A DNA stretch of 64,000 bases from Azolla caroliniana (lineage: Eukaryota; Plantae; Polypodiophyta): contig JBHGNT010000010.1 in NCBI GenBank assembly GCA_043228905.1, forward strand, positions 1,736,001 through 1,800,000, in the 5' to 3' direction. Shown here one piece after another: positions 7,985 through 57,782 of the stretch. The notes beneath the pieces are model-generated. The model saw only the letters and a program-made list of their open reading frames with translations, did no database searches and was not told the DNA's origin. Within the stretch, counting starts at the first letter, position 1. Every line of letters begins with the position of its first letter. The translations under genes were made by a program, and so were the position numbers.

Positions 7985-8649
7985 TTTCGGTTGGTAAGAC
8001 TCGGTTCGGAGTTGACTACAAACCTTAGTGGGGTGCAGCCAGTCGGCTCACCCGATATCGTTCTAGTCGGTTTTGAACCCAAGTCGGTTTGGTTTCAGAT
8101 ACTTGTTGCTGAACTTGCTCGAAGTGACTCCGGTAACTTGAGGGACAGAACCGGCTGGTCTTCCCGAATGTTGCTTAGTCGGAGTGAGCCCGGTTAGCTT
8201 CCAATTGTATGCCGAATACCGATTACGCGAAACCGATTGTTTGGGCCGATTTTGCTTCGGATGATTGCAGCGATGACTCCAACTAATCCTCCCGAATGTC
8301 GATCAGCCGAGTGAAGCATGAAGTGGTTGTTGCCGGGAGACCAATCTGCAGCGGGTGGTTACAACAAGCGGGTGAATAGCGTCCGATGACCTATTCGGAT
8401 GTTGTTTAACTGAATGAAGCACGATTGGGTCGGTTGTTGCTCAAGGAGCTCCCCTCAAGCGGTTACAATCACAGGAATAGAGTACAACCGACTGGCTTAC
8501 TCCAATTTGTGATTTAACACAGTGAGATGCGAGCTCTTTGTCTTTTTCTTCTCCCTTCTCTGTTCTTCAAAGAAAACGAAAACAGAATGTTGTGTTGTGC
8601 GATGACGGCCGGCAGCGGGTTAAAGAACCTCCAACGCTCTGATACCAAA

Positions 8650-8952
8650 TGTTGGGGACAAGGCTGTCAATGCGGAAGTGCAAGCAACATTCGTGATGAA
8701 GAAGATCATGTGTATGCACGAGCAAGATAGACACAAAGGGAGAGAGACACACACACACACACAACGTATCAATTATATTTCAATAACAACAGTTACAAAA
8801 ATAACAACCAACCTTTACTAAAGGTTACAAAGTCACTTTATATAGTGACTATCCTAGGGCAACTGCCCTTTATGCTATTTACAGAAATGACCCAAACTTG
8901 GGCTGTCCAAAGGGACAATGTGAATACGGCCATTATACACTCGTATTCGACA
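8650..8952 (-). repeat. Copia-1 5' LTR
   Basis: TG...CA ends, adjacent to the PBS. Confidence 0.95.
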
Positions 8953-13066: not shown

Positions 13067-13136
13067 AAACCCTAAACCCTAAGCCTAAGCCTAAGCCTTA
13101 CGCCCTAACCCTGAAATCCTATTCCCTTAAGCCCTG
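13067..13136 (+). promoter_or_regulatory. Telo-box / degenerate telomere-repeat array in the 5' region of the NRL gene
   Basis: AAACCCT x2, AAGCCT x3, then decayed units ending ~35 bp before the ATG. Confidence 0.55.
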
Positions 13137-13169
13137 AACTTTATCACCCACATAAAATTGTTTGCATCC

Positions 13170-30000: not shown

Positions 30001-30952
30001 TCATGACCACATTGAAAACTAATGTCTATTCTGAACTGACTCAAACAAAAGGCAGAACGGATTGACATTTCCCTTTAGCTCAGTAAAAGAAAACGAACTT
30101 ACCAATGCCACAGATAAGCAGTTTGTAAGTTCGCAAACTTCATGAAATTCTCACACATAGAGACATTCATTGCACTTACAGCGAAAATAGACGATCAAAA
30201 GCACCAAAGTCTTTACTATCTGCTGCTGCATTGAAGAGAACATAAAATGTATCCGTGTTTGGACTTAGACCAAGTCGTCTCATTTCTTCAACTCTCTTCA
30301 TTAAGATATCTACAGGTGCCCCTTTCAGACCCTCAGCTAGTAAAGCAATGTTGCAAGGGGTAACCAGAGGCTTGTTAGGCTGTCCAGTGATAGGATCGAT
30401 GCATTGCAACCACTCTCTATATATATCAATAGCCTCTTGAAACAACCTTTTCTTGATTCTTTCAGTCATTTCTTTGATTAAACCATGGATGCTTAAGGTT
30501 ACGCCAACAGGGGCAACTTGTACACCCCTACGAACTGTCGGCATTCCAGGGACGACTGGAGTTAAGGCATCTGTAGAGGAAGCAGCAGTACTCTCATCGA
30601 CATCATTAGAGGATTCAGTTGAAATTTTCTCCTCTTTAGCTTTACTTGCTGTAGAAGTTGATGATTCATTATTATTATTATTACCATTTTCTGAGGCGGA
30701 TAATTCATCAGATTCTTGCTGAGGAACCTGGGAAAGAGGAAAACTTGTGTGCAAATTTCTGTGATGTAGGAAGGCATTGCTTGATAGTAGCTCAGAAGAA
30801 GTAATGGGGTAGGAAATGATCGAATTCTCAGTGTATTTCAAGGGTACATTCTTGTGAGTGGTGCACTGTGAGGTCTGGAGAAATCTTCTTGCATCAGATC
30901 CATTGCTTCCCCTCCTGTGGAAGAGTCTGAGAAAAAGCCTCACACTTGACAT
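27066..30952 (-). CDS. Mitochondrial P-type PPR protein, At1g26460-like, ~657 aa. Exons 30952-30180, 29428-29212, 28823-28374, 27842-27642, 27501-27364, 27260-27066
   Basis: AINCVILGCSNVWDIDRAYQTFEAI, PDKRTYNLLIKAHIVNRD and LKLRRRFIRE match my recollection of At1g26460. Arg/Ser-rich N-terminal presequence. GT-AG phases are consistent. Confidence 0.85.
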
Positions 30953-31479
30953 TGCTTGAAGACCAACACTAAAACACCTGCTACAGCTACAGCTAGAGAG
31001 AGAAAGGTCGATGATCAAGTTCCTGCCATGGCCATTATCATCAGTACACATCATCGTCACATCACATTATCAATGTCAAACATCAACCACACTAAATGAC
31101 ATCAACGCCAACAACGTTACATCACACCATCGTATATCATCGCACATCAATCATCAACATCATCATTATCATCACCAGCATCCGCGCCATCTTCTTCTTC
31201 TTCTTCCTTCTACTTTCCCTCTTCTTCTTCTTCTTCTTCTTCTTCCTTCTTCACTCCCTCTCCTTCTTTCTCCTTCTTCCAAAACATCACAGAAGGAGGG
31301 GAGAACATCAGCAGAGTAAAAGGGAGGGGCATACCTGGATTTCGTTGCTATTGCTGCTCAGTTGAGCTTCCATCCGAGCGATGCTCTCAGCGATCTGTGC
31401 GAGCGCCCCAGATATGGTCGAAAGCAAAAATGGTACGAAAGAGATTAGGCCCTTCTTCTTCGCACTAGGGTTTATGGCC

Positions 31480-33992: not shown

Positions 33993-35300
33993 CAAGACAG
34001 AGAGCACGATGTATACAGAAAACAAGAAAATTGTATTAACAAGGAGCAAGAATGAACCAACAATTACAAAGAGGAGAAGGTGATGTAGTCACCTTCTCTC
34101 TATGTTCTCTCACTATAACCACCATTTGCAGAAGAGGTGGAGACTTAACTATCTACTAAATATGTGTCATATAACCTTAAAGTTCTATGACACACTAATT
34201 ACTATACTAAGAGGTGGGGTGTTCACACACTTGAGTATACTAAGGTGTGTTCCCATGCTAGGGAAGTTGAGTTTCATTCTCAACACGCCCCTTCAAACAC
34301 AACTTTCGGTCGCCGAATAGTTGGTTCGGACTGGTCTTCGGGTCGGCTTTGAATCGACTCCAGCTTTGGCTTCGGATAGCCAGCTCACTCCCGTGGTTGT
34401 TCTGCTCCGTTCGTCATCGTGTTAGACAATTCCCTATCCATACTCCCCCTCGAGCTCAGCTAGTCAGTGGTCAAAAGACCGAGGTTCGTCGTGAACTGCC
34501 ACAACTTGTCGACCCCTGAGGCCTTCGTGAAAATGTCGGTCGTTTGCAGATTCATGTTGATGTGTTGAAGGTCGACATCTCCGGCCAGGACACACTCTCG
34601 AATAAAGTGATAATGCATCTCAATGTGCTTAGTTTGAGCGTGGTTTGCGGGCCAATTGGATGTTGCTCATGTTGTCGCAATAGAGGAGAATCGGATCCTT
34701 GATGGGAACGCCTAGATCATTCAAGATTCTTTTGAGCCAAACGACTTCACATGTGGCGACGACCGCGCCCCTGTATTTGGCCTCTATGCTTGACAATGCA
34801 ACTATCGGCTGCTTCTTATTTCTCCACGATATGGCTCTGTTGCCGAGGGAGAAGACGAATTTGAATGTTGATCGTCTATCGGCTTTGTAACCGGCCCAAT
34901 CAGCATCATTGTACCCTTCGAGTCGAATTGGTGTGGCTGACTTCTAGAGGATGTCGAAATCCATCGTCCCACTTACATAGCGTAACACTCTCTTAGCACA
35001 GTCCAAATGAACACGGTGTCTACATAAACTGGCTAAGAGGCCAACTGGGTAGCTAAGGTTAGGCCGAGTGATGGTGAGATAGACAATGCTTCCGACTACC
35101 TCACGATAAACAGTCGGCCCACACTCTTATGTGCCGGAATTGGCATGTAGCCTTAGATTTCGATCGAGAGGGGTAGTGACGGGCTTACACTCTATCATCC
35201 AAAACTTGTAACGAAGATTGAGTATATAATGACGTTGGGAGATCATGATGCCGTCAGGAGTCCAAATAACTTCTATTCCTAGAAAGTAATGGAGCTCCTT

Positions 35301-35671
35301 TGTTGTATGTATGGCTGGACTAGCCACAACACAGGTGTCTATCCGACACTTCTCCAAAGGGGTGGTAGGGATAGGATGTTAATACACGCGTATGATAATT
35401 ACACTTAAGCACAGACGAAGACAAGATTAATCAGCATAAGCAAAACTATATTAATTCTTCGCGCTTTCATTACAAAACATCGGATCCTTTTATAGGCATC
35501 CGGCCAGATTACAATCGGTGCTCGGCAGGCAACCGTTAACCGAAACCGAATCGGTTCGGATCCGGATCGGTTACAACTACCGGATCCGTCCCTCCTAATA
35601 ATTCTATTCCTATTTCTATATTTATCCGATCCGACCTTGCTTTCCCATTTGCCTTCTCTGACCGGCCAACA
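35301..35671 (-). repeat. Gypsy-1 3' LTR
   Basis: TG...CA, identical to 45134-45504. Confidence 0.97.
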
Positions 35672-35721
35672 CATGGCACGCCCGTGGGAAAGTGCATTGC
35701 ACTTCGAACCCACAGCCGGCT

Positions 35722-38637
35722 TCAGTCTTCCTCCAAATTATCAGGCAAACTCCGCTCCGAGGTTTCAAGTGTTGTTTTGCCTGTGCCGTCTCCGACGTCC
35801 GATTGGATTGGCTGCCTTTCCGCATCTTGCTGCTCCGACTCTGCTTCTACCGGTAGTACCGGTGTTTCTTCTGTATCCTGTCCGGGTCTGTCCTGCTCTA
35901 CCTCCGTTCCGTTCCCGGTTTCGCTCTCTCCGGTTTCCACTGGTTGTGTCCTTTCCTCCCCGGATTCGGTACTTCTCTGTCTCCACTCTGCATCACCCCC
36001 GGCATCAACCTGTTCTTGCTCCGGAAGTTCTTCCTCGGGTAATTCTTGTCGGGGTGCGTTGTCGGTTGGGTTCTCTTCAGCCGATCGCTCGCCCTCACTG
36101 ATGGAGATCGGCGTTGTGCGTCCCTCGGCTTCCTGTCGCAGTCGGTCCTTCTCGTACCCTTCCAATTCCAGTTGGGTTTCGAGCTGCCCGTCATCCAACC
36201 TCTCTACTAACCCTCGGATTTCCTTGAGATGCTCTTCTGCTAGGGCATAGAAATCCTCCGACAATTCTTCCCGGATGTTGACGATACTTTCTTCGTCCAT
36301 TTTATAGAACCCATCTCCGTTTTTCTTCCGATTTTCTGCATCAGCTCGGAGTATCTGCAGTTCAGCTGCCTGTTGTGCCCATTCCTTCCAGAGTTTCTCC
36401 GTGCTTTCATTTATGCTGGCCTGAGCTCGGGTACTCCAGCTTGACATGATGAACTTAATTCGGTCAACCCCTGCTTTAGCCTGTTCCGAGGCTGCTTGTT
36501 TTTCCTTCCTTATCCGTTTGATGATGTCGGCCATTAACTGAGCTTGAGCTTCAGAGTCGACTTTTTGCTTGTCACAGGTACTCCGCCATTTGTTGATTTC
36601 GAAAGTCGACTTCACTTTTTCCTCGTTCCAACTCTTTGTCAGCTCCCCTACTTTCTGCCGAAGTACTTCCATCTCTTTTCTTTGTTCCGACGTCAAGGTC
36701 TTCTCCACCGATACTTCTTCCCTTGCTTTGGACACTTCCAAGCGGTTTTCCTTGAGCTGCTCTTTCAGCTTTTCTATCTGTCGGTCGTACGTTGCTGCCT
36801 GATTCTTGATGTCCGACGTGGCCTGTTTATAATCCTTACATAGTCGGTCGAATTCCTCCGTCTTCTGTTTTAGGCGTCGGTTCGCCTGATCTCGCAACCG
36901 ATCATCCCGGTCCTTTTGTTGTCGGAGTTCCTCTCGCAACCGCTCAATTTCCTGCTCCATTCGTCGGCGCAGCCTATCTTTTTCCTTTTGCAGTGTCCCG
37001 TTTTCTTCTTGTAGTCGGTCATTGGTGGCTTTGCTTCGGCGAAGGCCTTCCTCCATTCGCCGTCTGTCGTCTTCTGCCAACTTCCGCTGTTCTCTTTCGT
37101 TATCTCTCAATGCCTCCTGAGCCTGTAATTCTTCTTTCAAAGTTTCTATTAACTTCTCGGTCTCAGGGCCGGTTTGCACGGCCTTCTCCGTTTCTGGTTC
37201 GGCTTGCTTTTCTGATGTCCCGACCGTCTCGGTGCCATCTTGTGCTTGTCGGCTGCCTTCTTTTGCCTGTGCTAGCTCTTCTTGCAGCTCATGTAATTGT
37301 GCCCGGAGCATGACCATATCTTTAGTCGTCGTCCTAGTTACTTGTTCTCTTTGCTCCTCCTCTTTCTCCATCTGGTCTGCTACTCCCGACAACTGCCCTG
37401 ACACCCACCTTAGCCATTGTGCCTTTGTTCTGCCTTCGTTGGTGTGAGCAGGCGTACCTAGCTCCGACTGTTTTTCCGGCTGTTTCTCCGGCCTCTTCTC
37501 CTGCTCCGGCGCTTGTTCCTTTCTTGGTTCTTCGAACTCCGCCGCCGTCGGTTCCGGTACTGCCGTCGTTGGTGCAGACGGACCCTCATCCTGTGTCGCT
37601 TCTGTTCCGGTTACTGGAGGCGGTTCTTTTGCCCGTTGCTGAGTTCCGTCCGCTGTTGGGGTCGGTCTTGTCGCTCGTTTCTCCTTCCCTTGCCTGGGTG
37701 GTAGTATTAACGTCGGTTCGGATGAGTCTTCCTCTGTTTCAGCGTCCTCCGTCGGTGCCACTATTGGTTCCTTTACTGGTACCGGTTCCGATTCGAGCGT
37801 TACTGGTTCGGTGTCGGTTTGCCTCTTGCTAGTCTTCTTTGCCAGCTTCTCTTTGCCTTTTTCCGCCTTTTTCTTCTTCATTGTCGGCTGCTGTTGCTGT
37901 TTCTGTGGCTGCCGTGATGGGCCTTCGTCCCGTTGCTGTCGGGATGAGTCTTCTTCCCGCGGTTGTCGAGCTGAGCCTTCTTTCCGCGGCTGTCGGGATG
38001 ATCCTTCTTCCCGCGGCGCTTCTTCTTCCTGTGTCCATCCTGGGGTGTGTTTCTCTAGTATTCGTCGGCGCTTCATGGTTTGCTTCGGGGTAGTCTCCTG
38101 CCGACTTCTTTGCTTGTGCTTGATGGGGGACACCGGTGGGACCAACACTGTTAACCATTGGGATATTCCGGACCATGGCTTCTTCCCTTCCACCAAGTGC
38201 TTGATCGCCTCTTTCAGTCCTTCGGTGATGAAGTGGAGCCAGTCCACCTGCAGGCCTTCGAATGTCGCGATGACGATCGCTGCTCGGTATTTGGCTATGG
38301 CTGCCGGACGAGGGTTCACGAACCCATACTCCATCAGGGCACGGGCCACCTCTCCGAACAGCAGGTCCTCTCCGCCCTGTGTGCGATACGCCTTGCTGCT
38401 GAGGGAATATTCGCCGAAATACTCGAAGAATATTTGGCTCGAGGGTAGCTCTATTGTTTGAAGTCCTCCCTCCGAAATCCCTGAAAGCGCTTGTACCGCT
38501 CCTTCAGTGACCTCTGCTAAGTCCACCGCTGTTGCCGCCTGCTCTGGTTCCTTGTGTGGTGGAGCGTCAGCGACCCGCAGCAGCCCTCCTAATCCGTTCT
38601 CCGTCAGCCATTGTCGCGCTCCGTCCGACAGTGCCAT
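35722..38637 (-). CDS. Gypsy-1 additional ORF2, ~971 aa: globular N-domain, basic disordered linker, long coiled coil, acidic tail
   Basis: Open frame of 1064 codons. The ATG at 38637 (MALSDG) is the first in-frame ATG after the TATA box. No signal peptide or transmembrane stretch seen. Confidence 0.85.
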   Translation of the reverse strand: MALSDGARQWLTENGLGGLLRVADAPPHKEPEQAATAVDLAEVTEGAVQALSGISEGGLQTIELPSSQIFFEYFGEYSLSSKAYRTQGGEDLLFGEVARALMEYGFVNPRPAAIAKYRAAIVIATFEGLQVDWLHFITEGLKEAIKHLVEGKKPWSGISQWLTVLVPPVSPIKHKQRSRQETTPKQTMKRRRILEKHTPGWTQEEEAPREEGSSRQPRKEGSARQPREEDSSRQQRDEGPSRQPQKQQQQPTMKKKKAEKGKEKLAKKTSKRQTDTEPVTLESEPVPVKEPIVAPTEDAETEEDSSEPTLILPPRQGKEKRATRPTPTADGTQQRAKEPPPVTGTEATQDEGPSAPTTAVPEPTAAEFEEPRKEQAPEQEKRPEKQPEKQSELGTPAHTNEGRTKAQWLRWVSGQLSGVADQMEKEEEQREQVTRTTTKDMVMLRAQLHELQEELAQAKEGSRQAQDGTETVGTSEKQAEPETEKAVQTGPETEKLIETLKEELQAQEALRDNEREQRKLAEDDRRRMEEGLRRSKATNDRLQEENGTLQKEKDRLRRRMEQEIERLREELRQQKDRDDRLRDQANRRLKQKTEEFDRLCKDYKQATSDIKNQAATYDRQIEKLKEQLKENRLEVSKAREEVSVEKTLTSEQRKEMEVLRQKVGELTKSWNEEKVKSTFEINKWRSTCDKQKVDSEAQAQLMADIIKRIRKEKQAASEQAKAGVDRIKFIMSSWSTRAQASINESTEKLWKEWAQQAAELQILRADAENRKKNGDGFYKMDEESIVNIREELSEDFYALAEEHLKEIRGLVERLDDGQLETQLELEGYEKDRLRQEAEGRTTPISISEGERSAEENPTDNAPRQELPEEELPEQEQVDAGGDAEWRQRSTESGEERTQPVETGESETGNGTEVEQDRPGQDTEETPVLPVEAESEQQDAERQPIQSDVGDGTGKTTLETSERSLPDNLEED

Positions 38638-38772
38638 CGCTTCTTCTTCGTTTGCTGCTGCCTGTGGTCTGAGGTCGGGGTGTAGGTGTTCTGCGCGTCG
38701 GATCTTGCTGTCTTGAGCTTGCGTTTGCTTGTGGGAAAATTCGTAAAAAGTGAACCCTTCCCCGGTTCTTCC

Positions 38773-39060
38773 TTTATATAGTGGCGTTTCCCGCGGGCCG
38801 CCTTTTCCTGTTTTTCGCGCGTCCCCTGCCATAATTAGGATGTCACTCTTTATTTTTTGACGGCTGCACGTTTCTGCCATAATTAGCATGTCACTTTTTA
38901 ATTTTGACGGCTGCACGTGTTCTGCCTAATTTTGGCGCCTGCGCATGCTGTGTCATGTATAGTATGTCTGTCCTTTGCTGCCGCGTGTCATGCTTGCGTT
39001 TCTTTGCCGCGTGTGTCGAATCTCCTACGTGTCTGTCATTATGACTCCTTGATTGCCGCA
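38773..39060 (-). promoter_or_regulatory. Putative internal promoter of ORF2: TATA box, four E2F sites and a 48-bp duplicated element
   Basis: TATATAAA (minus) 38780-38773; TTTCCCGC 38787; TTTCGCGC 38813; TTTGGCGC 38931; TTTGCCGC 39003; 48-bp tandem 38826-38930 with TGACG and CACGT. Confidence 0.7.
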
Positions 39061-39211
39061 CGTATTAAGTCCTGTACCTCGGCGCCCCCACGTTCTGTGC
39101 TTTAAATAGCTCGTGCCTCCGTGTGACGGTTGTAACTACCTCCTTCATCATTACCATGATTTTCTTGATCTTCTTGTCTTGAATTCTCTTGACCGTAACA
39201 CCACGTCATCA

Positions 39212-39222
39212 TTTTTTCTTTT

Positions 39223-39275
<53 letters not shown>
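39212..39275 (-). repeat. Poly(A) tract in element sense (A51 plus GA5GA6) directly after the gag-pol stop
   Basis: Pure T run 39225-39275 on the + strand. Confidence 0.9.
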
Positions 39276-39277
<2 letters not shown>

Positions 39278-39288
39278 CATAAGCCGCA

Positions 39289-42200
39289 TCATTGTTCGGT
39301 TTCCCCCGATGTGTTCGGGTCGGTGCGCACTGTTGTCGGTTCCTCGTCGTTGTTACGCGTTGGTGTCGGTTCCTCGCCATTCGGGTTTTCCGGGTCTTGC
39401 TTGAAGGGGTTAGCTGGCATGTGCCCCTTATACGGTTTTAGGCGAAACCCATTTGCCCATTTGCCCACAACTTCTCCTGACAACGTCCCGAGCTGGTAAG
39501 ACCCATTGTACTCCTTTGTGATCCAGAATGGTCCGGTCCACCGAAATCGCAATTTCCCTGGCATGCTCCCCATCCTTGTCTGGAACAATAATACAGGTTT
39601 CCCGACCCCGAATTCCTTTTCGTTACCGCGCCGGTGTCGGTCTACAAAGGCTTTCCTCCTCCTTTGCTCTAGTTCTAGCTGTAGTAGGCTGGCTATTCGA
39701 TTTTCTTCCAGTTCTAACAGCATCTTCAGCCGGATTCGTTCGGATTCCTTCTCGCTTAACCGCTCCTTAACCTGTATTCTTAAGCTAGGAATTTGGAATT
39801 CTACTGGCATGACTGCTTCCAAGCCGAATGCCAGTCGGAACGGGGTCGTCCGGATGCTAGTCTTGTACGCCGTTCGGTACGCCCACAGTACGCTCTGCAA
39901 CTTCGTGTCCCAGTCGGTCCGGTTCTCATTGACGATTTTTCTAAGGATGTTCTGTAGCGTTTTATTCGTTGATTCCGCTAATCCGTTGGCTTGAGGGTAG
40001 TAGGGAGTGCTTCGTTTGTGTACTACCGCATAGAATGATGTCAAACTTTCCACCACCTGCCCGAGAAAATGTCCTCCCTGGTCACTGATCAGCTCAATCG
40101 GGCATCCGTACCGACACCATATGCATTCATATAAAAATTTGGCCGTGGACGCCGCCGTGTTGTCCCGTAGTGCCTTTGCTTCTACCCATTTGGTGCAGTA
40201 GTCGGTAGCCACTATTATATACCGATTTCTGGTCCGCATTGCCGGTGGCTTAAAGGGGCCGACAAAGTCTAAGCCCCACTTTTGGAATGGTTCTAATGGC
40301 AAGACCGGGTGATGTGGCATCCGGGCCTGCTCCGTGGGTTGGCCCAGTCGTTGACACAGGTCGCATTCCCTGCTATACTTAACGGCATCTCTCATGGTAG
40401 TCGGCCACCATAGTCCGCTCTGCCATATCTTCCGGGCTGTTGTTTCGCCGGCATAATGCCCGCCTGCAATTCCACAGTGGGCTTCCCTCAGGATCAGATC
40501 CTTTTCATCGCTCCGCACTGCTCGCCTCCATACGCCATCTGCCCCCTTGTGATAGAGGGTGTCTCCTACCAAGCAAAAATGTCTGCTCCGTACTGCCATC
40601 CTCTTCCGTTCGTCTCGGTCCAGGTTTTCCGGGGGAACTCCGGTGCTCAGGAACTGATGCATTTCGGTTAACCATTTGTCTTCGTCCGCTACTGTGGTCT
40701 CCGTTGCCGGTGTCGTCGTGACCTTAAACAGCTCGGCGTCGGGAAATTCGTCCTGCACGCCGTCCCCTGATTCTCCGGATTCTAGTCTGCTCAGGTAGTC
40801 TGCTACCGCATGCTGCACCCCGGGTCGGTGGAAAATGTCGAATTCGAATTCCTGTAATAGCAGCGTCCACCGTGCGAGTTTTCCTGTCAGGGCTGCCTTT
40901 GAGACCAGGTACAGTAGTGCCGAGTGGTCAACGTGGAAGGAGAACTTTCGTCCGAGCAGATAGTGCCTGTACTTTGTGACGCTGTACACCATTCCTAATG
41001 CCTCTCGTTCCGTTGTAGAGTAGTTCCGTTCGGCTTTCGAGAGTTTCCTGCTTGCGTAGTACACCGGCCGATACCATTTCGGTTCCGTGAGTTGCATCAA
41101 AACGCTGCCGATTGCTACGTCCGACGCGTCGACGAAGACGTGAAAGCTTTTACTCCAGTCCGGCGGCTGCACCACCGGAGCTTGTGACAGCATGACCTTC
41201 AATGCTTGGTAGGCTGCCTCCTCCGTTTCTGTCCATTGGAAAGGTACTCTATGTACAGCAGCATGCAATGGTGTTGCAAAGTCGGCAAGGTGCCGTATCA
41301 TCCGACTATGCCACCTTATTTGACCAAGGAATCGGCTTAAAGCTTTTGCGCTATTCGGTGCCGGTGCGTCGAGAATTGCTTTTACCTTATCCGGATCTAC
41401 CGCGATTCCTTCTCGACTCACCACGTGGCCTAACAAATTGCCGCTTGCGACTCCAAAGACGCACTTAGCCGGGTTCAGACTTAATCGGTACTCGCGGCAC
41501 TTTTCTAAGCATAGTCGTAGGTGATCGAGATGCTCTCCGTGTCGGCTGTAGACGGCGAAATCGTCTAGGAAGACCTGCATAAAACCGGGAATAAAATCCC
41601 CGAAGATTTCCATAATTATCCTTTGAAATGTTGCAGGGGCTGTCTTTAATCCGAACATCATCACGACGGCGACGAACACTCCCCATTCCGTCACGAACGC
41701 TGTTTTCTCTTGGTCGGCCGGGTTCATTCGGATTTGGTTGTAGCCGCTGAATCCGTCCAGGAAGCTGTAAACTTCGTGGCCGGCCACCGCATCTAGCACT
41801 CCGTCCGTGAATGGTAGTGGAAAAGCGTCGGTCACTGTCGCGGCATTTAGTTTCCTGTAGTCCACACATACCCGGATTTTACCGTTCTTTTTCGGGACCA
41901 CCACTATCGGGCTTAGCCAGGTTGCCTGCTTGACTGGTCGGATAAATCCGACCCGGAGAAGCTTGTCAATTTCCTCCTTCACCTTTGCCGCATAGTTTGG
42001 ATTCATCCGGTACCGACGTTGAGTGATGGGTTTCGCGTCAGTACTTAGATGAATTTGGTGCTGGTAGAGCTGGGGGTCCAACCCTCGCATGTCTTCGTAT
42101 GACCATGCGAACACGTCCTTGAAATCCGTTAACAGTGCTACCATTGCCTGTTTTTCCTCCTTCGGCAATTCCTTCGCGACTTTTACCGATCGGGGTTGTT

Positions 42201-45081
42201 CTGTTGTGCCGAGGTCCACCTCTTCCAGCTGAGATGCTTTCACCCTTTGGGATATCGTCATTTCTCTTTCTAGGGCTTCCTGTGCTTGGCGTAGTTCCCG
42301 GATCGCCACTTTGTCCGGCTCGTCCGGCATTGTGATGTACGGTTCTACTGCTGCCGTGATATCCACCTCAAAAAGTGGGACGATCTGTGGGTGTTCCTCG
42401 AGGTACCGATCAACTTCCTCATCCGGTAAGCCCTGCAACATGTTGATGCTTTCGGCATATAAAGGGGTTGCCTCCTTGCTAGTGAGCACCCGTGGTTGCG
42501 TGGCTACCCGTACCTTTGTTTTCCCTCGTCGGAACGTGATCATATTCTTTTGCCAGTTTTGCTTGATATGCGCCGTTCGCAGCCATGGTCGTCCTAACAG
42601 TAGGGGATATGCGCCTTGTACATTCAGCTCTAGTACCACGGCCGATATTCGGAATACGTGGCCTCCTATTGTCACTTCCAAGTCCCGGATAAGACCAGTT
42701 GGTCGGACTGAGCTTGTATCCGCCATGCGTAACCAGAAGGGGCATGGTTCCCACTCCTGGATGCCTAGGTCGTCGCATGTTTGTAGACTAATGACGTTCA
42801 CCCCGGAGCCTCCGTCAATAATTGTTCCTGGGATCTCCTTTCCTTTGACGATTGTCGTGATTGCTGGGCTACTGGTATCAACCACCGCTGGGCCTTCCTC
42901 TGGGTTGGAGAAAAATGCCGGTGCCGGCATCGGCGTCGGTTTGCTCACGGCGGCTTGTAAGTCTGCTGTAAACCGCGGCACCAACTGCAGTAACCGTGCC
43001 AACGGCAGCACGATCTGACAATCTTGTAGTGCTTGCCATGTCGGGTTTTCTCCTGGCTGTACGATTTCCTCCTCCCTTGGCATCTTTTGGTTTCTTACTT
43101 CCGCCGCACCTTGTTCGTTGGCTTCTTTGATCCATTGTGCCGCTTGTTTTCTGATTGCTTCCTGGGCTTCCCATTCGGCGGCCTTCCCCTTCGACCGCGT
43201 GGTAACCTGCTGTACTTCAGCTGTCACCATGTTGACTGTTGGCTGCTTGTCGGCTGTTTTGCTTGGGCATTGATTACTGTAATGCCCTTCTTTTCGGCAG
43301 TAATAACAGTACACCCTGTGCGTGTTGCTGGATTCTCCTTTTTCCCATGTTTGGGGAAGGGGCATTCCCCGGCTGTTGTCCTCGGTTTTTCGGTTCTCCG
43401 GTGCCGCTACTGGTTTGTCATTCCTCGTTGCCTCCCGACGCTCCTCTCTACGGAAGAATCCACGCCTTTGGTTCCGTCGGAAATTCCGGTTCCCTGGCCG
43501 CCTTTCTTCTCTGCGTCGCTCGTATTCCGGGGATTCGTCTCGGTCGTACCGGTCCCGGGGGTAGCTATCCCTTCGGTTCTCCTCTCGGTCGTACCGGTCC
43601 CGGGGGTAGCTATCCCTTCGGTTCTCCTCTCGGTCGTAGCTGTCGCGTCTTCTATCGGGGTATCTGTCGCCGCGTTCTCGTCGGTAGCGGTCGTCCCTCC
43701 GGAATCGATCCTCTTCCGGGTCCCGATTGCGCGGTTCTATGTGTCGGACCGGTGCCGCTTGTCGAGTTAACAGATTATACTCGCATTGGTTCGTTGTGTG
43801 GGCGCGAGAATTGCATATCATACACTGTGCGCGCAGGGTGCAGTCAACGGTCGAGTGCCCTGAATTTAGGCATGTTGTGCATTGTAGGGCTTGTCGGAAC
43901 CGGAGGTCCTCCTCCTTCGGAAGCGCCTGGTGTAACGCCCCCATCGGCAAGAAGGGGCTCGTGGTGTCCATTTCCAGGACCCGATCAATGACTTGGTCCA
44001 TTGTGCTGGTGCTGAAATCGATGATTCCACACATCGCTCGAAGTGGGTCTTTTAATGCAGCCAAAAAGACTGCCTTGGCCTCCTCTTCGGGTGGTGCTCT
44101 TGCTAATTGACTGTGCAAGGTCTGGAAACGAATGATAAATTGTGGGACCGTCTCGTTTTCTCCCTGCCGAGTGGTGTAGAATTGTCCGACCAATTCCCTT
44201 TGTTCCACTCGTCTATGAAACAAGCGTAAAAACTGGGTTTTCAATGCCTCGAACGTGGCGAAGCTGCCTGGTAAGTGCTTGTCGTGCCACCGGGCCGCCG
44301 GTCCTTCTAATGTCATGCCGAATTCGGCGACTTTGGATCGGTCGGCCTCGGCCTCCGTCAGTCTCTGGGACACGTGGTTGGCTTCCCATGTTCGCAGGAA
44401 TGCATACACATGTGCCTCTCCGTCGGGCTCATCCCGATACTTTGGGTACGGATACGGCATCGTGTCGTCCCACTGATTCTCCTGCGCTGGTTCCTCCGAT
44501 GTCGGTCTCCGCTCGTGCGGTTCCTCCGCAGGTGGTGTTGGTATCCGCTCCTGCGGTTCCTCTGCGGGTGGTGTTGGTATCCGCTCCTGCGGTTCCTCCG
44601 CGGGTGGTGTTGATATCCGCTCCTGCGGTTCCTCCGCGGGTGGTGTTGATAACCGCTCCTCCCTCCTCGGCGATTGCCGGTCACCGAACTCCCGAGTTAG
44701 TTCTTCCTCTGGCTCCGATGTGGCTGAGTGATCCGACTCAAAGGGGTTGTTCCCGTGGCTGCTTTTAGAGCGGGATCCCACGCTTTCCCCGCTATCCGAA
44801 TCCGCCTCTAATGTTGCAAATGCCGCTGCGTCCCCGTCGCCGCCAGCGAGAGTCTGTAGTAGTGTCTCCGCTTCTTGGAGGCTGGTTATGCTACTGCCTT
44901 CGTCGGAAGCTTGTAGAACCTGGAACTGCAGTGCGTTTTCTGCGATTTGCCGAAGCGTTGTTGAGAATGACCGATCGCTCCGGATCTCGTCGACGGCTTG
45001 CTGCAGGGCTTCCCGTCGTCGCTGCCGTTCGGCGTGGCGTCTCCCTCTTTCGGTGATGTGGTCGTTATTTTGTCTAGACAT
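39289..45081 (-). CDS. Gypsy-1 gag-pol polyprotein, single frame, ~1930 aa
   Basis: Capsid; three CCHC knuckles; protease IIDGGSGVN; RT (LDGFSGYNQI, VFLDDF); RNase H (VDASD..ERNYSTTERE); integrase (HHCC, WGLDFVG, SDQG, QANG.AE, GPF). No chromodomain. Confidence 0.97.
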   Translation of the reverse strand: MSRQNNDHITERGRRHAERQRRREALQQAVDEIRSDRSFSTTLRQIAENALQFQVLQASDEGSSITSLQEAETLLQTLAGGDGDAAAFATLEADSDSGESVGSRSKSSHGNNPFESDHSATSEPEEELTREFGDRQSPRREERLSTPPAEEPQERISTPPAEEPQERIPTPPAEEPQERIPTPPAEEPHERRPTSEEPAQENQWDDTMPYPYPKYRDEPDGEAHVYAFLRTWEANHVSQRLTEAEADRSKVAEFGMTLEGPAARWHDKHLPGSFATFEALKTQFLRLFHRRVEQRELVGQFYTTRQGENETVPQFIIRFQTLHSQLARAPPEEEAKAVFLAALKDPLRAMCGIIDFSTSTMDQVIDRVLEMDTTSPFLPMGALHQALPKEEDLRFRQALQCTTCLNSGHSTVDCTLRAQCMICNSRAHTTNQCEYNLLTRQAAPVRHIEPRNRDPEEDRFRRDDRYRRERGDRYPDRRRDSYDREENRRDSYPRDRYDREENRRDSYPRDRYDRDESPEYERRREERRPGNRNFRRNQRRGFFRREERREATRNDKPVAAPENRKTEDNSRGMPLPQTWEKGESSNTHRVYCYYCRKEGHYSNQCPSKTADKQPTVNMVTAEVQQVTTRSKGKAAEWEAQEAIRKQAAQWIKEANEQGAAEVRNQKMPREEEIVQPGENPTWQALQDCQIVLPLARLLQLVPRFTADLQAAVSKPTPMPAPAFFSNPEEGPAVVDTSSPAITTIVKGKEIPGTIIDGGSGVNVISLQTCDDLGIQEWEPCPFWLRMADTSSVRPTGLIRDLEVTIGGHVFRISAVVLELNVQGAYPLLLGRPWLRTAHIKQNWQKNMITFRRGKTKVRVATQPRVLTSKEATPLYAESINMLQGLPDEEVDRYLEEHPQIVPLFEVDITAAVEPYITMPDEPDKVAIRELRQAQEALEREMTISQRVKASQLEEVDLGTTEQPRSVKVAKELPKEEKQAMVALLTDFKDVFAWSYEDMRGLDPQLYQHQIHLSTDAKPITQRRYRMNPNYAAKVKEEIDKLLRVGFIRPVKQATWLSPIVVVPKKNGKIRVCVDYRKLNAATVTDAFPLPFTDGVLDAVAGHEVYSFLDGFSGYNQIRMNPADQEKTAFVTEWGVFVAVVMMFGLKTAPATFQRIIMEIFGDFIPGFMQVFLDDFAVYSRHGEHLDHLRLCLEKCREYRLSLNPAKCVFGVASGNLLGHVVSREGIAVDPDKVKAILDAPAPNSAKALSRFLGQIRWHSRMIRHLADFATPLHAAVHRVPFQWTETEEAAYQALKVMLSQAPVVQPPDWSKSFHVFVDASDVAIGSVLMQLTEPKWYRPVYYASRKLSKAERNYSTTEREALGMVYSVTKYRHYLLGRKFSFHVDHSALLYLVSKAALTGKLARWTLLLQEFEFDIFHRPGVQHAVADYLSRLESGESGDGVQDEFPDAELFKVTTTPATETTVADEDKWLTEMHQFLSTGVPPENLDRDERKRMAVRSRHFCLVGDTLYHKGADGVWRRAVRSDEKDLILREAHCGIAGGHYAGETTARKIWQSGLWWPTTMRDAVKYSRECDLCQRLGQPTEQARMPHHPVLPLEPFQKWGLDFVGPFKPPAMRTRNRYIIVATDYCTKWVEAKALRDNTAASTAKFLYECIWCRYGCPIELISDQGGHFLGQVVESLTSFYAVVHKRSTPYYPQANGLAESTNKTLQNILRKIVNENRTDWDTKLQSVLWAYRTAYKTSIRTTPFRLAFGLEAVMPVEFQIPSLRIQVKERLSEKESERIRLKMLLELEENRIASLLQLELEQRRRKAFVDRHRRGNEKEFGVGKPVLLFQTRMGSMPGKLRFRWTGPFWITKEYNGSYQLGTLSGEVVGKWANGFRLKPYKGHMPANPFKQDPENPNGEEPTPTRNNDEEPTTVRTDPNTSGETEQ

Positions 45082-45133
45082 CCATCCCCCGGTTGTCCTC
45101 TGCACTCTGCAGGAATCGTGGTCGCCAAAATAG

Positions 45134-45504
45134 TGTTGTATGTATGGCTGGACTAGCCACAACACAGGTGTCTATCCGACACTTCTCCAAAGGGGTGGTA
45201 GGGATAGGATGTTAATACACGCGTATGATAATTACACTTAAGCACAGACGAAGACAAGATTAATCAGCATAAGCAAAACTATATTAATTCTTCGCGCTTT
45301 CATTACAAAACATCGGATCCTTTTATAGGCATCCGGCCAGATTACAATCGGTGCTCGGCAGGCAACCGTTAACCGAAACCGAATCGGTTCGGATCCGGAT
45401 CGGTTACAACTACCGGATCCGTCCCTCCTAATAATTCTATTCCTATTTCTATATTTATCCGATCCGACCTTGCTTTCCCATTTGCCTTCTCTGACCGGCC
45501 AACA
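45134..45504 (-). repeat. Gypsy-1 5' LTR
   Basis: Followed on the minus strand by a 6-nt spacer and the PBS; TATAAAAG inside. Confidence 0.97.
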
Positions 45505-48500
45505 TCCTTCATGTCTTTCGTTTCGAATTGGTCGGAGAATAGCTTTTTGATATGTTTGATATATGCTAAATGCTCTCCTCCAATGTCCAAGTCATTCACA
45601 TATATTAGGATAAATACTTGTCCTCTGGAGTCACTCTGGATGAACAAAGAATTGTCGGACTTGTACATTTTAAAGCCGATTTGGTGAAGATATTGGGCTA
45701 TCTTCAAATGCCATGCTCTAGGTGCTTGCTTGAAGCCGTAGAGGCTTTTTAATTCGGCAAACAGCAGTCGGATGCATACTCAACTTTAATCCCAAGTGGT
45801 TGTACCATGTACACCTCCTCATCTAATTTGCCTTGGAGAAAGGCGTTCTTGAAGTCCATTTGATGGAGGTGTCACCCATTTGCTACTGCAAGCACAATCA
45901 CAGTTCGAATGGTAGTCATCTTTGCCACCGGTGCAAAGGTCTCTTCATAATCAACCCCATGTGTTTGCGCATACCCTTTTGCCACGAGCTAGGTCTTATA
46001 TCGATTGACAGTGCCATCAACATTGTGCTTCACCTTGAATATCCACCGACACCCGATTGCCTTTTGGTGGGGTGAAGGGGGAACGAGATCCCATGTCTCG
46101 TTTTTGGAGGGTGCTTGCATCTCCTCATTCATCGCTTCGACCCATCATGGGTCTTTGTGGCTTCGGAAAAAGTTTTTGGCTCTCGGATTGTCGCCACCTT
46201 CATCATGATTGCATAATGATATGCCATGTGGTCGTTGTAGCCGAATCAGATGAATATGTTATTCTCTCGAGTGGACCGACGTGGTTGTTCACTTGTCTTC
46301 GTGAACACTTTCTCGACTCCTCGTATCCTCATGATAGGCACATCCAATTCACCATACTCACTGTCGAGTTGGTGAGCCGATTTGTTTCCATCGGAGGCTT
46401 TGTACTCAAGCATTTTGACCTTCCCTTTGTCCAATTTCGGACTTGGCCATGACGTGCTTTGGTCACTTGGAGGCTCTTGCGGTCCACTCAACTTGGTTGA
46501 GATTGGACTTTCTTTTGGTGTGAGCCTCAGTTGATCATCCTCCTCTGAGTCTATTTTGATTGGGTTAGATAGAGCTGAGTTGACTGTGTACCAGGATGCT
46601 AATTCATTGAATACAACATCCATACTCACTCATACCTTCTTGGTAGAGGGGTTGAAGCACTTATACCCCTTTTGTTCGAGCGAGTACCCAAAAGGATACA
46701 ATTCTCCGATTTTGGATCGACCTTTTGTCGCTTTTCATTCTTGATGTAGGTTTGGTTGCCCTCTTCGCCAAAAGGGACATTTATGACATGCTGAATAGGG
46801 TGGGTTGTGTCATCCCCTATTTCCACATAGCTGGGTCGTTCGAGTTTTTGCAATTCTCAAAACCAAACATTATGAGACGTCAGATGATTGGATGCACCCG
46901 AGTTGACAAACCATACATTTTCCGAGTTGGAGGTGTTTGTACGATATTGTCATCAAATTCACTCTATGTCACATCATGAACATTCTGCCACGATCGTTGT
47001 AGTCGGAATTTGAGGCATAGTTAGTAAGTTGTCAGCTTGTGAAGGCTGGCTGGCTCTTCTTCTTCTGACACTCTGCCCCGTAGTGGCCAAATTTGCCATA
47101 GTATCCACATTGGACGGAGTTGTTTTGTCGGTTGGGTTTGGCATTATTGCTCCTCTTTCTTCCAGACATACAACCTCGCGTGTTTGCAACGTCTTGTTAG
47201 TAGTAGAAGTTCTATTCGCAGGGTTGTTCTTGGTTGTGATGGCCTTGGCCGACTCAACCTCTTCTTCCACGACTTTGTCCCCTTCCTTCATCCAAGTTCG
47301 AATAGAGCATTTGTCCTTCTTGCACATTGCTCTTTGTTCGAACGTGATTTTCTTCGACCGGTAGCATATTATATCCCGCGGTGAGAATTTACCGTAGTAT
47401 TCTATACACGTGGATAAGTGTGAGGGTTAAATGAGAGTGTAAAGAAGGGGAGGATTACTTTTAATCCTCGGGATTGAGACAACCTGTTAGGCCAAGTGTG
47501 AACTTGCCTGGGGGTCTTGGGTATCACTATAAATATGAAGCCTAGCTACCCTCATTTCATCATATCTTGACTACGTCGAGACTCTGTTTCGTGGTGGGTC
47601 AACTCTTGTAGTGAGTCCGCCAACACCAGGTACGACTCAACGTCACGACAATGGTATGGGATGCCGATCGAGGCTCGAGTCCGTCTCGATCCCTTTGCTC
47701 GGGGGTGGTCGGGTGGATCGACACCCTTCTTTCTCTCTCTCTCTCTCTCCTTTCTATCAATCTATCTTTTATCCTTATCATATGCTTACTTTAGATCATA
47801 ACTTTAATAGTTGGTATCAGAGCTTATGTTTCTAATGTTTCCTTTGTTTGTTTTTGTCTTCTTGATGGATGGTGATCAATCGATGTGCGGTCGACCTTGA
47901 TCCAGATGGCGATCAACAAAGGAACATATTTGATCGTATATGTGTGATAAATATACATATGTCTATGTTAGTTATAACGTAATTTCTATTATTATCGAAT
48001 GTTGTCCTTTTCAGGGAAAGGATCTTGGTGACTGTCCTCACATTTTTGTGAGAATGGCATAGTCATCATCCTTTTTTCAACAATCTTTTTTATTGACATC
48101 CCCGTTGGTCACTTCAATTTTGTTACGTAATGAAACGATCATAGCCACAATGATGGTGAGAATGTAGGGCTTGACCCACTTCATGTGAGGTCGCTCCTAG
48201 GACACACATATCCAACATCCTTCCCTCACTACATGGATACAATGCCACCATGAGATCATTCTTACGAAAGGCATTCGTAATGACGTAACCATGTAATGGG
48301 CCACGTGGACCTACTATGAAAAGAGGGCTCATTTGGCTTGACCATTAGGTTACACTTTGGCATATGCCATCATAATTATGAGACTTGAGGTTAGGTAATG
48401 TACCAACATAGTTTGTGGTAAACGAGTGGGAAATAAGGACTCTTGACATATGTGTTTCTTTTTAAAAAAACATACATGAGCAAATGCCTCGCATATCTCT

Positions 48501-49130
48501 TGTACGCATAAAACATTAAACATGCAACACGAGCAACCTATTTGGTTAGCTCAAGTGTTTAATGTATTTGTTCTCGAGGTCTCGAGTTCAAATATGACCA
48601 AGACCATACAACATTATTGATACATATGACTATAATACATGTTTAGACTTTAGGTCTAAGTGCACTTCGAGGTCCTCGTAATAGGACTTAAAGAGCCAAC
48701 ATTATTGATACATATGACTATAATACATGTTTAGACTTTAGGTCTAAGTGCACTTCGGGGTCCTCGTAATAGGACTTAAAGAGCCGAAACCACATACGTG
48801 GGCACAAAAACATAGTTTATTGTTAACATTTTTTTCGTGTATAAACTATTCATGACACGAACATACATGGTTGAGCCTCGGGGAGCCGCCATGAAAAAAA
48901 TTGATATAGAGATTAGGGAAAGACATTCATTTGTCACCCCCATGGTTTTTAAAACACCTTTGTGTTACCATAGTAACCTGATCTTGAACCTCATCTCATA
49001 CGTCTAGAGGGGTATTGACGTGAGATTATGATATGGATTAATGTTGGCCCATGATATGTTTACATCACGACTTGATGTTATGACTATTTGTCTGACCTTA
49101 TCCTATTTCTTTGCCAGAAATAATCATTCA

Positions 49131-52100
49131 ATGGCTCAGAATAACGACCCGATGTCATCCGCTCAAGCGGAAGGAACTTGAGGAAATCCTCTTGGAGCAA
49201 TCTCCATTGAGTCGTATTTCTTACACATACAAAATTTCCTTAATTCAACCGCTCATCAGATGTCCGAACTTCTGCAATCTCAAAGTGCTCTCGAGGCATG
49301 TGTCATTAGTTTACAACGTGACTCTAATAGACCCGATGAGCGTCAGGGTGAACCATCATTTGTCGTAAAGCCATTTACGGGAGAAAAAAAGGAAAGAACC
49401 AAAGAAGCAATCTGCACGTGGTTGGGCTAATGGGAGTCTCATTTTGTGCTCTATCCTATGCCAGATAGTACAAAGATTGCATATGTCGGCCGAGAACTAG
49501 GGGGTAAGGCTGCCGCCTGATGGTGTGGGCTCCGAACTTTGGGGAAATTGCCTGATACCTGGACAGATTTTGTCATAGTTTTTAAGGGCCAAATTTTGCA
49601 ACCTCCCTCTCAAACCGAGGCAACACAAGCTTTAATGAACTTCTCTAGTAGGAAGTTTTCCTTGCTAGAAGACTATGTTCACCATGCTCGAACCCAAATC
49701 CAAAAATCGGGTCTAGAAGGGGACAATTGGTTGATAGCTTGTTTTGTCAATGGCATTCCCAATTCGGACTATCACTGGATAATACATGATAAGGATCCAA
49801 AATCCTTCGAACAGGTCGTTGAAATAGTTCTTCGCTATCAACGCACTTCGAAGAAGGATCATAACAAACCCAACGAAGCACACGGGACTAAGCAATCGCA
49901 ATTCGCTAGGAAACGCAAGACACCCAACGAATTCGTGGATTGTGATTGTAAGCGACAACATCCTTTTTGCGTATTCTGTAAAAAGAAGGGTCATACAAAA
50001 GAACAATGTCGAGAGCTCCAACGGAAAGAGCACGGCAACAAAGCAAAAGTTGTAGACCATAAAGGTTAGATTCCTAATGTCCTTGAGGTCTATACGCCTC
50101 ATTTAAATAATTGTGAATGTTCTTTCCCTCACTATGTATTGGGACCCAATGATTTACTACGTGCAAACGGGTATGTCAATGGATCTCTCGTACAATTTTT
50201 GTTTGATTTGGGAAGCTCACACAATTTTGTGAATGATTGTCTGGTTCATATATGGGGAATCCAACCCATCGTAAGTGATCACACCTATAGGGTGCACTTG
50301 GCTGATGGAAGAGTACAATACATCAACGGGGCGATTCATTCATTAGGAATTTCTATTGATACTTATGTAGAGGAAGTAGACTTCCATGTAATGAATCTTT
50401 GTACCACTGATGTAATACTAGGTTATCCCTGGTTTTATAATAAAAACTTTTCTTTGTCTATTGATTGGGTTCGTCATTCCATTTCCTTTGTACTAAACAA
50501 TTGTACTCATTTTATTCAAGGTGTAAATAAACAATCCCTTTCGATTGTTTCCTCTCCATCAATATTTGAGTTATCTTGTTCTTCTTTATTTTATTGTGTA
50601 CTTGATCCGAACATTCATGTTACAATATTGATAACATCTCAGGTCAATTGACATATTTTGAACAACAACAACTCAATAAAATCTTAAATGATTTTCATGA
50701 TGTTTTTCCGAGTGAACTACCACATGGGTTACCTCCTAAACATAATATAGACCATCGTATAGATATAATTTGTACCTGGCGTTGCACCAATAAGTATACC
50801 TCCTTATCGCTTAAGTCGATCCGAAGAGGATGAGGTATCTAAGCAACTCAAGGACTACTTACGAATGGGTTATATATGTTATAGTAAATCTCCATGGGGT
50901 GCACCTGTTCTCTTGGTAAAAAAAGAAAGAGGGCACATGGCGTATGTGTATTAATTATCGACGCTTGAATAAAGTGACAATCAAGAATTCATATCCATTG
51001 CCCTGGGATGACGATCTAATTGACCATCTCCAGGGAGCTCGGTATTTTACGAAACTTGATCTCCGTACAGGCTACCATCAAATTCGTATAAGTGAGGACG
51101 ATGTTCCTAAAACGACATTTCGTACGCGTTATGGCCATTATGAGTTTTTGGTTATGCCTTTTGGTTTGACCAATGCTCCGAACACATTTCAACAAGAAAT
51201 GAATGACATTTTCTGAGAACAACTTGGAAAATTTGTCATTATTTTCTTGGATGATATTCTAGTTTATAGTCATACATTAGGAGAACATGCTAAACATGTC
51301 TGTTTTGTTTTGCAAACATTGCGCGATAAGCAATTCTATGAGAAGATCTCAAAATGCGAGTTCTTCAAGAAATCAATTACTTATCTTGGACATCTCATAA
51401 CCGAACGAGGAGTTGAAATTGATCCTTCTCGCATCGAGAAAATCAAACTTTGGCCTACTCTTCGGAATATTCGAGAAATTCGATCATTCCTTGGTTTTGT
51501 CGGGTTTTTGCGAAATTCCCTTTGTAATTACTCCCAATTGACGATGCCGTTTACTGATCTTCTAAAAGGTCAAACACGTAAGTCTACAAAACCTATTGTG
51601 TGGAATGCTACACTAGGCCTCGCCTTTAAGGAACTCAAGGACCTGGTGTGCAAGGCTCCTTCGCTTCTTTTACCTGATCCTTCAAAACCTTTTGAAGTTG
51701 AAACCGATGCAAGCGATTATGCTATAGGTGTTGTCTTATATCAAGATGGTAAACCAATAACATTCGAGAGTAAGAAACTTGATTATGCTCAATCTCGGTA
51801 TACGGTTCAAGAAAAGGAATTATTTGCAGTTATACATGCGCTCAAAAGTTGACGCCTTTATCTTTATGGAAATCTTTTTGTGGTAACTATGGACCACAAG
51901 TCCTTGAAATATTTTTGTGACCAACAAAACCTAAAAGGTTGTAAGGCACGATGGGTTGAACATTGTCGAAGTTGCATCCGTGAAGTTAACATGCTTAGCT
52001 TCACTGAAATAACATCAAATCTTTATGATCACCTTCGAGGAAAGTATCTTGTGTTAGGAAATAGGTCCCTCCAGATGGGAAGTTGAGAAGAACCGTGTTG

Positions 52101-57658: not shown

Positions 57659-57782
57659 ATAGGGGTTGTCGTAATTCTGCTAAAATTCGAAGAAAAGACA
57701 GAAAGAAAAAGAGAGCAGGATTTGTTCTTGAAGCTTCTTCTTCTTCTTCTTCTTCTTCTTTCCTTTGGAGGCTCGGCTGTCT

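Follow-up and report, generated by a model that had tools for sequence, protein, structure and literature searches.

A Ty3/gypsy retrotransposon of Azolla caroliniana with a tRNA-like module in place of the polypurine tract

INTRODUCTION

What starts the plus strand of a long terminal repeat (LTR) retrotransposon that has no polypurine tract (PPT)? Priming from the PPT is held to be general for LTR retrotransposons and retroviruses, reviews of LTR elements give it as the standard plus-strand primer, and annotation tools lean on it. The question is raised by a Ty3/gypsy element of Azolla caroliniana, which we analyzed in a window of 64,000 nucleotides (assembly GCA_043228905.1, contig JBHGNT010000010.1, positions 1,736,001 to 1,800,000); all coordinates below are positions within this window. 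The element occupies 35301..45504 (10,204 bp) on the minus strand. The original prediction, made from the sequence alone, took it for a probably still active, two-gene element of an Athila-, Phygy- or Selgy-like branch, with a cell-cycle-controlled accessory gene and unusual plus-strand priming. The two-gene layout is ordinary: extra open reading frames (ORFs) in sense orientation, E2F motifs in transposable elements and Tat lineages without an additional RNase H (aRH) have all been published, and the surprise lies in the plus-strand signal. That signal is more unusual than had been claimed, since the element has no PPT and may well prime both DNA strands with host tRNAs, the plus strand with tRNA-Arg(UCU) acting in trans, a proposal drawn from its sequence to which we give an even chance.

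RESULTS

A tRNA-like module before the 3' LTR

Immediately before the 3' LTR (35301..35671, minus strand, 371 bp, TG...CA termini), only 8 of the last 20 nt are purines and the longest purine run is 3 nt, and the relatives of the element are alike in this. The corresponding 20 nt in seven other LTR elements, taken from the window and from fetched loci as controls, contained 11-17 purines in runs of 5-17. One of the controls is a second, decayed Gypsy element in the window (47365-54556, plus strand), which has LTRs of 91% identity, a normal PPT and a primer-binding site (PBS) of the TGGTATCAGAGC type. In place of the PPT, the studied element carries a 43-nt module that resembles the 3' end of tRNA-Arg(UCU) (35672..35714, minus strand). 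The module is non-coding, beginning at the stop of the second open reading frame (ORF2), and consists of a T-stem and T-loop part (35704-35714, minus strand; TGTGGGTTCGA), an inserted 14-nt hairpin (35690-35703, minus strand), and the 3' strand of the T-stem with an acceptor end that includes CCA (35674-35689, minus strand; TCCCACGGGCGTGCCA). A spacer of 2 nt separates the CCA from the 3' LTR, and on the plus strand the module reads as a second PBS pointing inwards. A hairpin before the 3' LTR had been noticed in the original prediction and is real (z -3.58, with 0 of 200 shuffles as stable), but its likeness to a tRNA-Arg 3' end, its reading as a second PBS and the missing PPT had been overlooked.

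Relatives of the element were collected as 61 loci; as ORF2 served to find them, this set cannot show how many copies lack it. Complete modules were present at 12 sites from 11 of these loci, and the last 18 nt were identical in 11 of the 12 sites, while identity among the relatives ranged from 37% to 96% in ORF2 and fell as low as 58% in the LTRs. One further locus, L006, has a sequence that stops within the module and matches as far as it goes.

The resemblance to tRNA-Arg(UCU) comes from a pattern search. With the hairpin left out, the module pattern gave a single match in 2.9 million viral contigs, and this match is the 3' end of a tRNA-Arg(TCT) called by ARAGORN. The end of this viral tRNA pairs with the minus strand of the element over 27 bp in segments of 10, 6 and 11 bp, with the hairpin looped out (calculated with RNA energy parameters). 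In addition, a fragment of Arabidopsis tRNA-Arg(CCG) has UGUGGGUUCG in common with the module, as given in a published table of fragments (PMC3221849). Rfam and ARAGORN searches of the element and the window gave no match, and a motif search of the literature found no plant tRNA-Arg(UCU) end.

The first, minus-strand PBS of the element also points to a tRNA-Arg. It has the sequence TGGCGACCACG (45117..45127, minus strand) and is complementary at 11 of 11 positions to the 3'-end fragment of Arabidopsis tRNA-Arg(CCG) in the same table (PMC3221849), and the identical site occurs in the relatives L002, L013, L040 and L049. It stands 6 nt after the 5' LTR (45134..45504, minus strand, 371 bp). The spacing (45128-45133 in the window) is 6, 6 and 7 nt in L002, L049 and L040, respectively. 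Standard pipelines may miss this PBS because a spacing of 6 nt exceeds the range of 0-5 nt searched for REXdb.

A complete element of a sister family was found at L063:7813-21573, on a contig filed under a bacterial metagenome-assembled genome; the locus is one of sixty (L063-L122) in which a eukaryotic retroelement pol was matched in prokaryotic genome records, probably through contamination. The sister element has LTRs of 1.65 kb (93% identical) and TGGCGACTCCGCTGGGGA as its PBS, and its LTR, PBS and module sequences differ from those of the studied family. Its reverse transcriptase-RNase H (RT-RH) region is 66% identical to that of the element and falls in the same clade with a support of 100. 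The 3' end follows the same plan, without a PPT: a hairpin, a CCA tail, 2 nt and the LTR. A search pattern made of a T-loop motif and the L063 tail gave 33 viral matches, 12 of them in tRNA 3' ends, and 11 of these 12 were tRNA-Arg(TCT); the T-loop motif in this pattern favours tRNAs, but not a particular isotype.

Priming of the plus strand

The module has the sense of a tRNA in the genomic RNA and so cannot bind a tRNA there, but only on minus-strand DNA, where it forms a PBS aimed into the 3' LTR, the place at which plus-strand synthesis must start. We propose that after minus-strand transfer RNase H would strip the RNA and expose the new minus-strand DNA, that tRNA-Arg(UCU) would anneal to this DNA in three pieces (10, 6 and 11 bp), leaving the 14-nt hairpin as a loop, and that synthesis of the plus strand would begin from the CCA end of the tRNA. 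This tRNA would then be taken off by RNase H, like the first primer, and the 2-nt spacer would be trimmed away by integrase. Ty3 and Ty1 likewise use a tRNA for the minus strand, and the tRNA of Ty3 anneals in separate segments that include the T arm; in Ty3, however, the additional segments bind the first-strand primer on the RNA, and plus-strand synthesis starts from a PPT (PMC5371799). Sequence derived from tRNAs is also found in the LTR elements known as Helenus terminal-repeat retrotransposons in miniature, which differ in that their tRNA-like part is a promoter located within the LTR, the PPT is normal and the elements are non-autonomous (PMC10886601).

The same module could also act in cis, if the tRNA-like hairpin of the genomic RNA resisted RNase H and, cut after the CCA, served as the plus-strand primer with no second tRNA. 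As RNA the module folds well in the window, L016 and L040 (z -3.6, -3.2 and -2.1), in L040 the cis T-stem is one pair longer and a compensated change preserves the inner hairpin, and the geometry of the resulting end would equal that of a PPT. Yet relatives do not preserve the lower cis stem: the partner strand of the acceptor-like tail varies without compensation, whereas the tail itself is fixed, a pattern to be expected if an outside tRNA imposes the constraint. Moreover, the L063 module folds no better than shuffled sequences (z 0.19) and nevertheless retains a tRNA-Arg-type tail, and the match of two families to one isoacceptor is more than a mimic of the fold would require. We consider priming in cis unlikely.

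It is less probable still, and in our view rather improbable, that the module has no part in priming the plus strand of the genome. It might then serve RNA packaging, stability or processing, or prime on an antisense transcript, with the plus strand starting at the A-rich tract that follows pol or at a site that we did not recognise. Of 37 relatives, 27 have such an A-rich purine tract after pol, and central PPTs occur in retroviruses and Ty1 (PMC5371799). However, a central start cannot set the exact end of U3, and here the TG...CA ends are precise and the target-site duplication (TSD) is perfect; in each of the two families the CCA is exactly 2 nt away from the LTR, and the length of the A-rich tract varies freely.

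Several points weigh against priming by tRNA-Arg(UCU) in trans, among them the stable folding in cis described above. Covariation is thin, with one compensated pair in one sequence, a level reached by 57 of 500 shuffles. The module is one base short of a tRNA and the T-arm part of L040 has one base extra, both of which give bulges, and the L063 module has no clear T-loop part and is known from a single copy. The match to tRNA-Arg(UCU) depends on virus-borne tRNAs rather than on the host's own, the relatives come from few assemblies and share ancestry, and the argument as a whole is built on DNA sequence rather than on replication intermediates, RNA or protein. Weighing these points, we judge priming by tRNA-Arg(UCU) in trans to rank first, a cis-acting mimic second and a role outside priming third. 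In a literature search at the level of abstracts, with few subscription papers, we found no description of plus-strand tRNA priming, of a second or inverted PBS, or of a missing PPT.

Classification of the element

As had been predicted, the element has two stop-free ORFs of the same sense. The first, gag-pol (39289..45081, minus strand), encodes 1930 aa in the order GAG, protease (PR), RT, RH and integrase (INT), with every catalytic motif present, three CCHC zinc knuckles in gag, and all four acidic residues kept in the native RNase H. Pfam searches found no chromodomain up to E=1 and no additional RNase H of the RVT_3 type, in agreement with the original prediction, and the linker between RH and INT is short. 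Short tandem repeats of 45, 36 and 27 nt occur in frame in gag and ORF2 (43267-43881, 43538-43638, 44500-44660 and 37907-38017). The LTRs, the TSD, the order PR-RT-RH-INT and the tRNA-type PBS all place the element in Ty3/gypsy, of whose usual features the PPT is missing.

In RT-RH trees, made with a quick method (one of them with 83 rows, 40 animal, algal and redundant rows having been omitted), the element falls inside a clade of unnamed rows with a support of 100. This clade belongs to a wider group (support 90-93) whose named members, the nearest named RT relatives of the element, come from Riccia, Marchantia and Adiantum. Beside this group stands a separate angiosperm clade with a support of 100, which may be Athila, going by the features of the clade and an RT insertion; the element lies outside it, and its RT is without the loop insertion seen in those angiosperm sequences. 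The element is also placed apart from the chromodomain-bearing rows, which together with the missing chromodomain excludes a chromovirus. The Tat group of REXdb (TatI-III, Ogre and Retand) is excluded by the lack of an additional archaeal-type RNase H.

The Athila-, Phygy- or Selgy-like branch that had been suggested fits less well, since by the criteria tabulated in REXdb each of these lineages differs in a defining feature. Phygy has a 4-bp NCGN TSD, a tRNA-Trp PBS and no extra ORF; Selgy has a 4-bp TSD, a tRNA-Ala PBS, a length of about 5 kb and again no extra ORF. With Athila/OTA elements the studied element shares a 5-bp TSD, a single gag-pol ORF and a sizeable additional ORF after pol and before the 3' LTR (PMC6317226, PMC7264820). 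Sense extra ORFs in this position are well known, and some of those in OTA elements encode PMD, Transposase_28 or Athila ORF-1 domains (PMC6317226, PMC7264820). Unlike Athila/OTA elements, however, it has no PPT, its ORF2 product has no transmembrane segment, and its PBS matches tRNA-Arg(CCG) in place of tRNA-Asp or tRNA-Asn, or the tRNA-Ala that Athila may also use. A better fit is offered by Tat Z1/Z2, defined by Biryukov and Ustyantsev in non-flowering land plants as lacking aRH and keeping the native RNase H intact (PMC10508981), both of which we found in this element. It shares these two features, as a non-chromovirus Ty3/gypsy element, with the Tat Z1/Z2 of both published accounts, which define their classes by protein domain and in whose main texts the words PBS, PPT and polypurine are absent (PMC10508981, PMC13468544). 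The assignment to Tat Z1/Z2 is made by published features only.

The ORF2 protein

ORF2 (35722..38832, minus strand) encodes 1036 aa from a conserved MAGD start, with a disordered N-terminal tail, a globular domain, a proline-rich linker with basic runs resembling nuclear localization signals, a long coiled-coil-like region and an acidic tail. Its substitution pattern marks it as a family trait under purifying selection: pooled dN/dS in 15 sequences, whose pairs are non-independent, was 0.09 in the globular domain (38128..38637, minus strand, about 170 aa), 0.18 in the coiled-coil-like region and 0.37 in the linker. No transmembrane segment was found (the highest 19-residue hydropathy, 1.3, falls inside the globular domain), and ORF2 is thus not env-like.

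For the globular domain we obtained a structural model with a predicted local distance difference test score (pLDDT) of 92.7. An exhaustive VIA structure search (48,161 chains) returned the VANC21-DNA complex 9lnk first (Z 6.1, root-mean-square deviation 3.6, 163 residues aligned), a match that stands alone, the next chain having Z 2.6, and that spans the whole domain. The predicted likeness to VANC21/DUF1985 and PMD goes further, to a globular domain combined with a coiled coil, encoded by a transposable element and adjoining short tandem repeats (PDB 9lnk; PMC5735166, PMC13547354). VANC has been linked to the PMD fold, coiled coils are reported in VANC and Athila proteins, and the targets of VANC are arranged as tandem repeats within non-coding regions of its element (PMC5735166, PMC13547354, bioRxiv 10.1101/2024.09.27.615353). 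In our element, a 48-bp tandem repeat at the start of ORF2 (38826..38931) varies in copy number among relatives. VANC differs in being encoded by angiosperm Mutator DNA transposons, and for ORF2 DNA binding, a target motif and demethylation are putative.

Against a VANC-like fold stand the sequence identity of 9% in this match and a Z of 6.1 that is under the usual safe level of 8. Foldseek found no match for the ORF2 model in PDB and BFVD, a PDB profile search likewise gave none, and none of 51 family members matched DUF1985, PMD, Transposase_32 or ATHILA in Pfam; the Atlas links to PF20167 and PF03078 (the Transposase_32 and ATHILA families; 0.81-0.85) are leads only. On balance we think it fairly probable that ORF2 combines a PMD/VANC-like globular domain, its fold predicted, with a coiled coil. 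The protein is likely a nuclear DNA-binding one, and an anti-silencing activity would be a guess by analogy with VANC that we hold to be possible but doubtful.

In the sister element L063, the end of pol carries, as a fusion, a domain related to that of ORF2 (hhalign 85%, E 6e-6), and another frame, of 325 codons, extends into the 3' LTR. A single-sequence fold of this L063 accessory domain reached a pLDDT of 38.8 and was unusable.

Start and expression of ORF2

The original prediction arranged an A51 run, four E2F sites and a TATA box before ORF2 and read them as a cell-cycle-controlled promoter. All of these motifs are present, but the order is not as given. The four strict E2F matches (TTTSSCGS; 38787..39010, plus strand) lie at 38787, 38813, 38931 and 39003, and the TATATAA (38774..38780, minus strand) together with the two E2F matches nearest to it falls inside ORF2, the TATATAA as codons L-Y-K. 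This depends on where ORF2 begins. ATG codons occur in frame at 38889, 38880 and 38637 besides 38832, and a start at 38637, our first reading, was revised to 38832 on tests of the frame. Upstream of 38637 the ORF2 frame is open for at least 60 codons in 34 of 40 rows, compared with 2 and 19 for the other frames; the distance between the MAGD ATG at 38832 and the ATG at 38637 varies between 180 and 210 nt but is divisible by 3 in 38 of 40 rows, as against 3 of 27 in a neighbouring non-coding control; and dN/dS in this part is 0.54 in the ORF2 frame vs 0.89 and 1.02 in the others. Because the frame is conserved despite the varying length, the TATATAA and two of the E2F matches are most likely coding. 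Distant homologs, however, begin at the position of 38637, and both starts are possible.

That a separately promoted, E2F-controlled accessory gene is what distinguishes this element is very unlikely, and the claim of cell-cycle control did not hold up. In this copy the four strict matches compare with 0.49 expected in resampled sequence (P=0.001, post hoc), a relaxed motif (WTTSSCSS) is enriched in 30 of 41 relatives (mean 1.6 vs 0.6 expected), and transposable elements are known to carry E2F motifs (PMC7329337). Strict sites, on the other hand, are present at least once in only 11 of 41 relatives, at least twice in 3 and four times in none, TATATAA is found in 9 of 44, and the relaxed motif coincides with tandem repeats and CCAAT-like words, besides the coding position of part of the cluster. 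E2F binding may still occur but has become less probable. A conserved box of the CTATTTAA type (39100..39110, minus strand) is kept in the upstream alignment out to the most distant relative, L040. It is the better promoter candidate, and ORF2 probably has its own internal promoter around 39100-39110. The A51 run after the pol stop (39225..39275, minus strand) is a local expansion of the A-rich tract, which measures A7-A22 in the 27 relatives that have it; we rejected it as a special signal, given its varying length, and short-read assemblies may shorten such runs.

Insertion site and age

The LTRs of the element are identical over 371 of 371 positions and TCCTT is duplicated on each flank (35296..35300 and 45505..45509), as the original prediction had seen. 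The insertion splits a decayed Copia element (approximately 34700-35295 and 45510-47330) within its RT region. The empty site, in which TCCTT stands in single copy, was seen in a contig of run X9 (organism B) that matches the right flank from 45505 at 133 of 134 letters and runs on, at the predicted place, into the ten letters preceding the left TSD; this far side of 10 letters is shorter than the 31-letter rule of the search tool asks for. Contigs of three organism-A runs leave 45506-45560 uncovered, a gap that proves nothing. The identity of the LTRs bounds their divergence to less than 0.8%, which at an assumed rate would correspond to an age of about 0.3 million years. By its sequence the element is young and intact. 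The prediction that it is still active goes further than LTR identity does, since that sets a bound on divergence, and present activity is putative.

Relatives and other features of the window

ORF2 has 9 close full-length or long homologs, and its N-terminal domain forms 180 clusters at 50% identity. A search for longer relatives of ORF2 gave 9 close ones and no others. The 3' end of pol precedes ORF2 in 22 of the 61 loci, and all 30 bins of the ORF2 region are covered by contigs of four runs from four organisms. Scans of viral contigs with the ORF2 and pol alignments, and with the junction of module and LTR, gave no match. An upstream pol in L040 (26% identity) was considered as a case of ORF2 on another lineage and rejected, as it belongs to a nested element with its own LTR and a purine-rich end; this unrelated Gypsy element (L040:3-3745), with a repeat-rich LTR, is inserted in a member of the studied family. 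In L049:2852-5555 the order ORF2, module, LTR, PBS, partial gag, ORF2 end, module and LTR indicates a tandem, internally deleted arrangement, which has low coverage and may be real or an assembly join.

Elsewhere in the window, a decayed Copia element on the minus strand (3446-8953) has LTRs of 96% identity, a normal PBS and a purine-rich end. A BTB/NPH3-family host gene (13131-14954) forms a single frame of 607 codons, a multi-exon PPR-like host gene on the minus strand (28341-31066) has a weak PPR_2 match, and a frame of 307 codons (57732-58655) has a CxxC...HxC motif and no Pfam match.

DISCUSSION

The picture that we put forward, with somewhat less than even confidence, is of a Tat-type clade of seed-free plants that has lost the PPT and uses host tRNA-Arg isoacceptors as primers for both strands, binding the second of them at a three-part site on minus-strand DNA. 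The clade would also encode a VANC-like anti-silencing gene of its own, which stands apart in the studied family and is joined to pol in the sister family. The two parts would matter in different ways. In plant non-chromovirus elements, whose extra ORFs have long lacked an explanation, a VANC-like fold would offer a testable function, and it suggests that these ORFs may encode chromatin factors and not envelope proteins. The proposed plus-strand signal, 43 nt long, is directly testable on oligonucleotides. If it does act as a primer-binding site, a high-copy, recently mobile lineage with a tRNA site instead of a PPT would be a clear exception to PPT priming, and would illustrate how the choice of primers by RNase H can be rewired.

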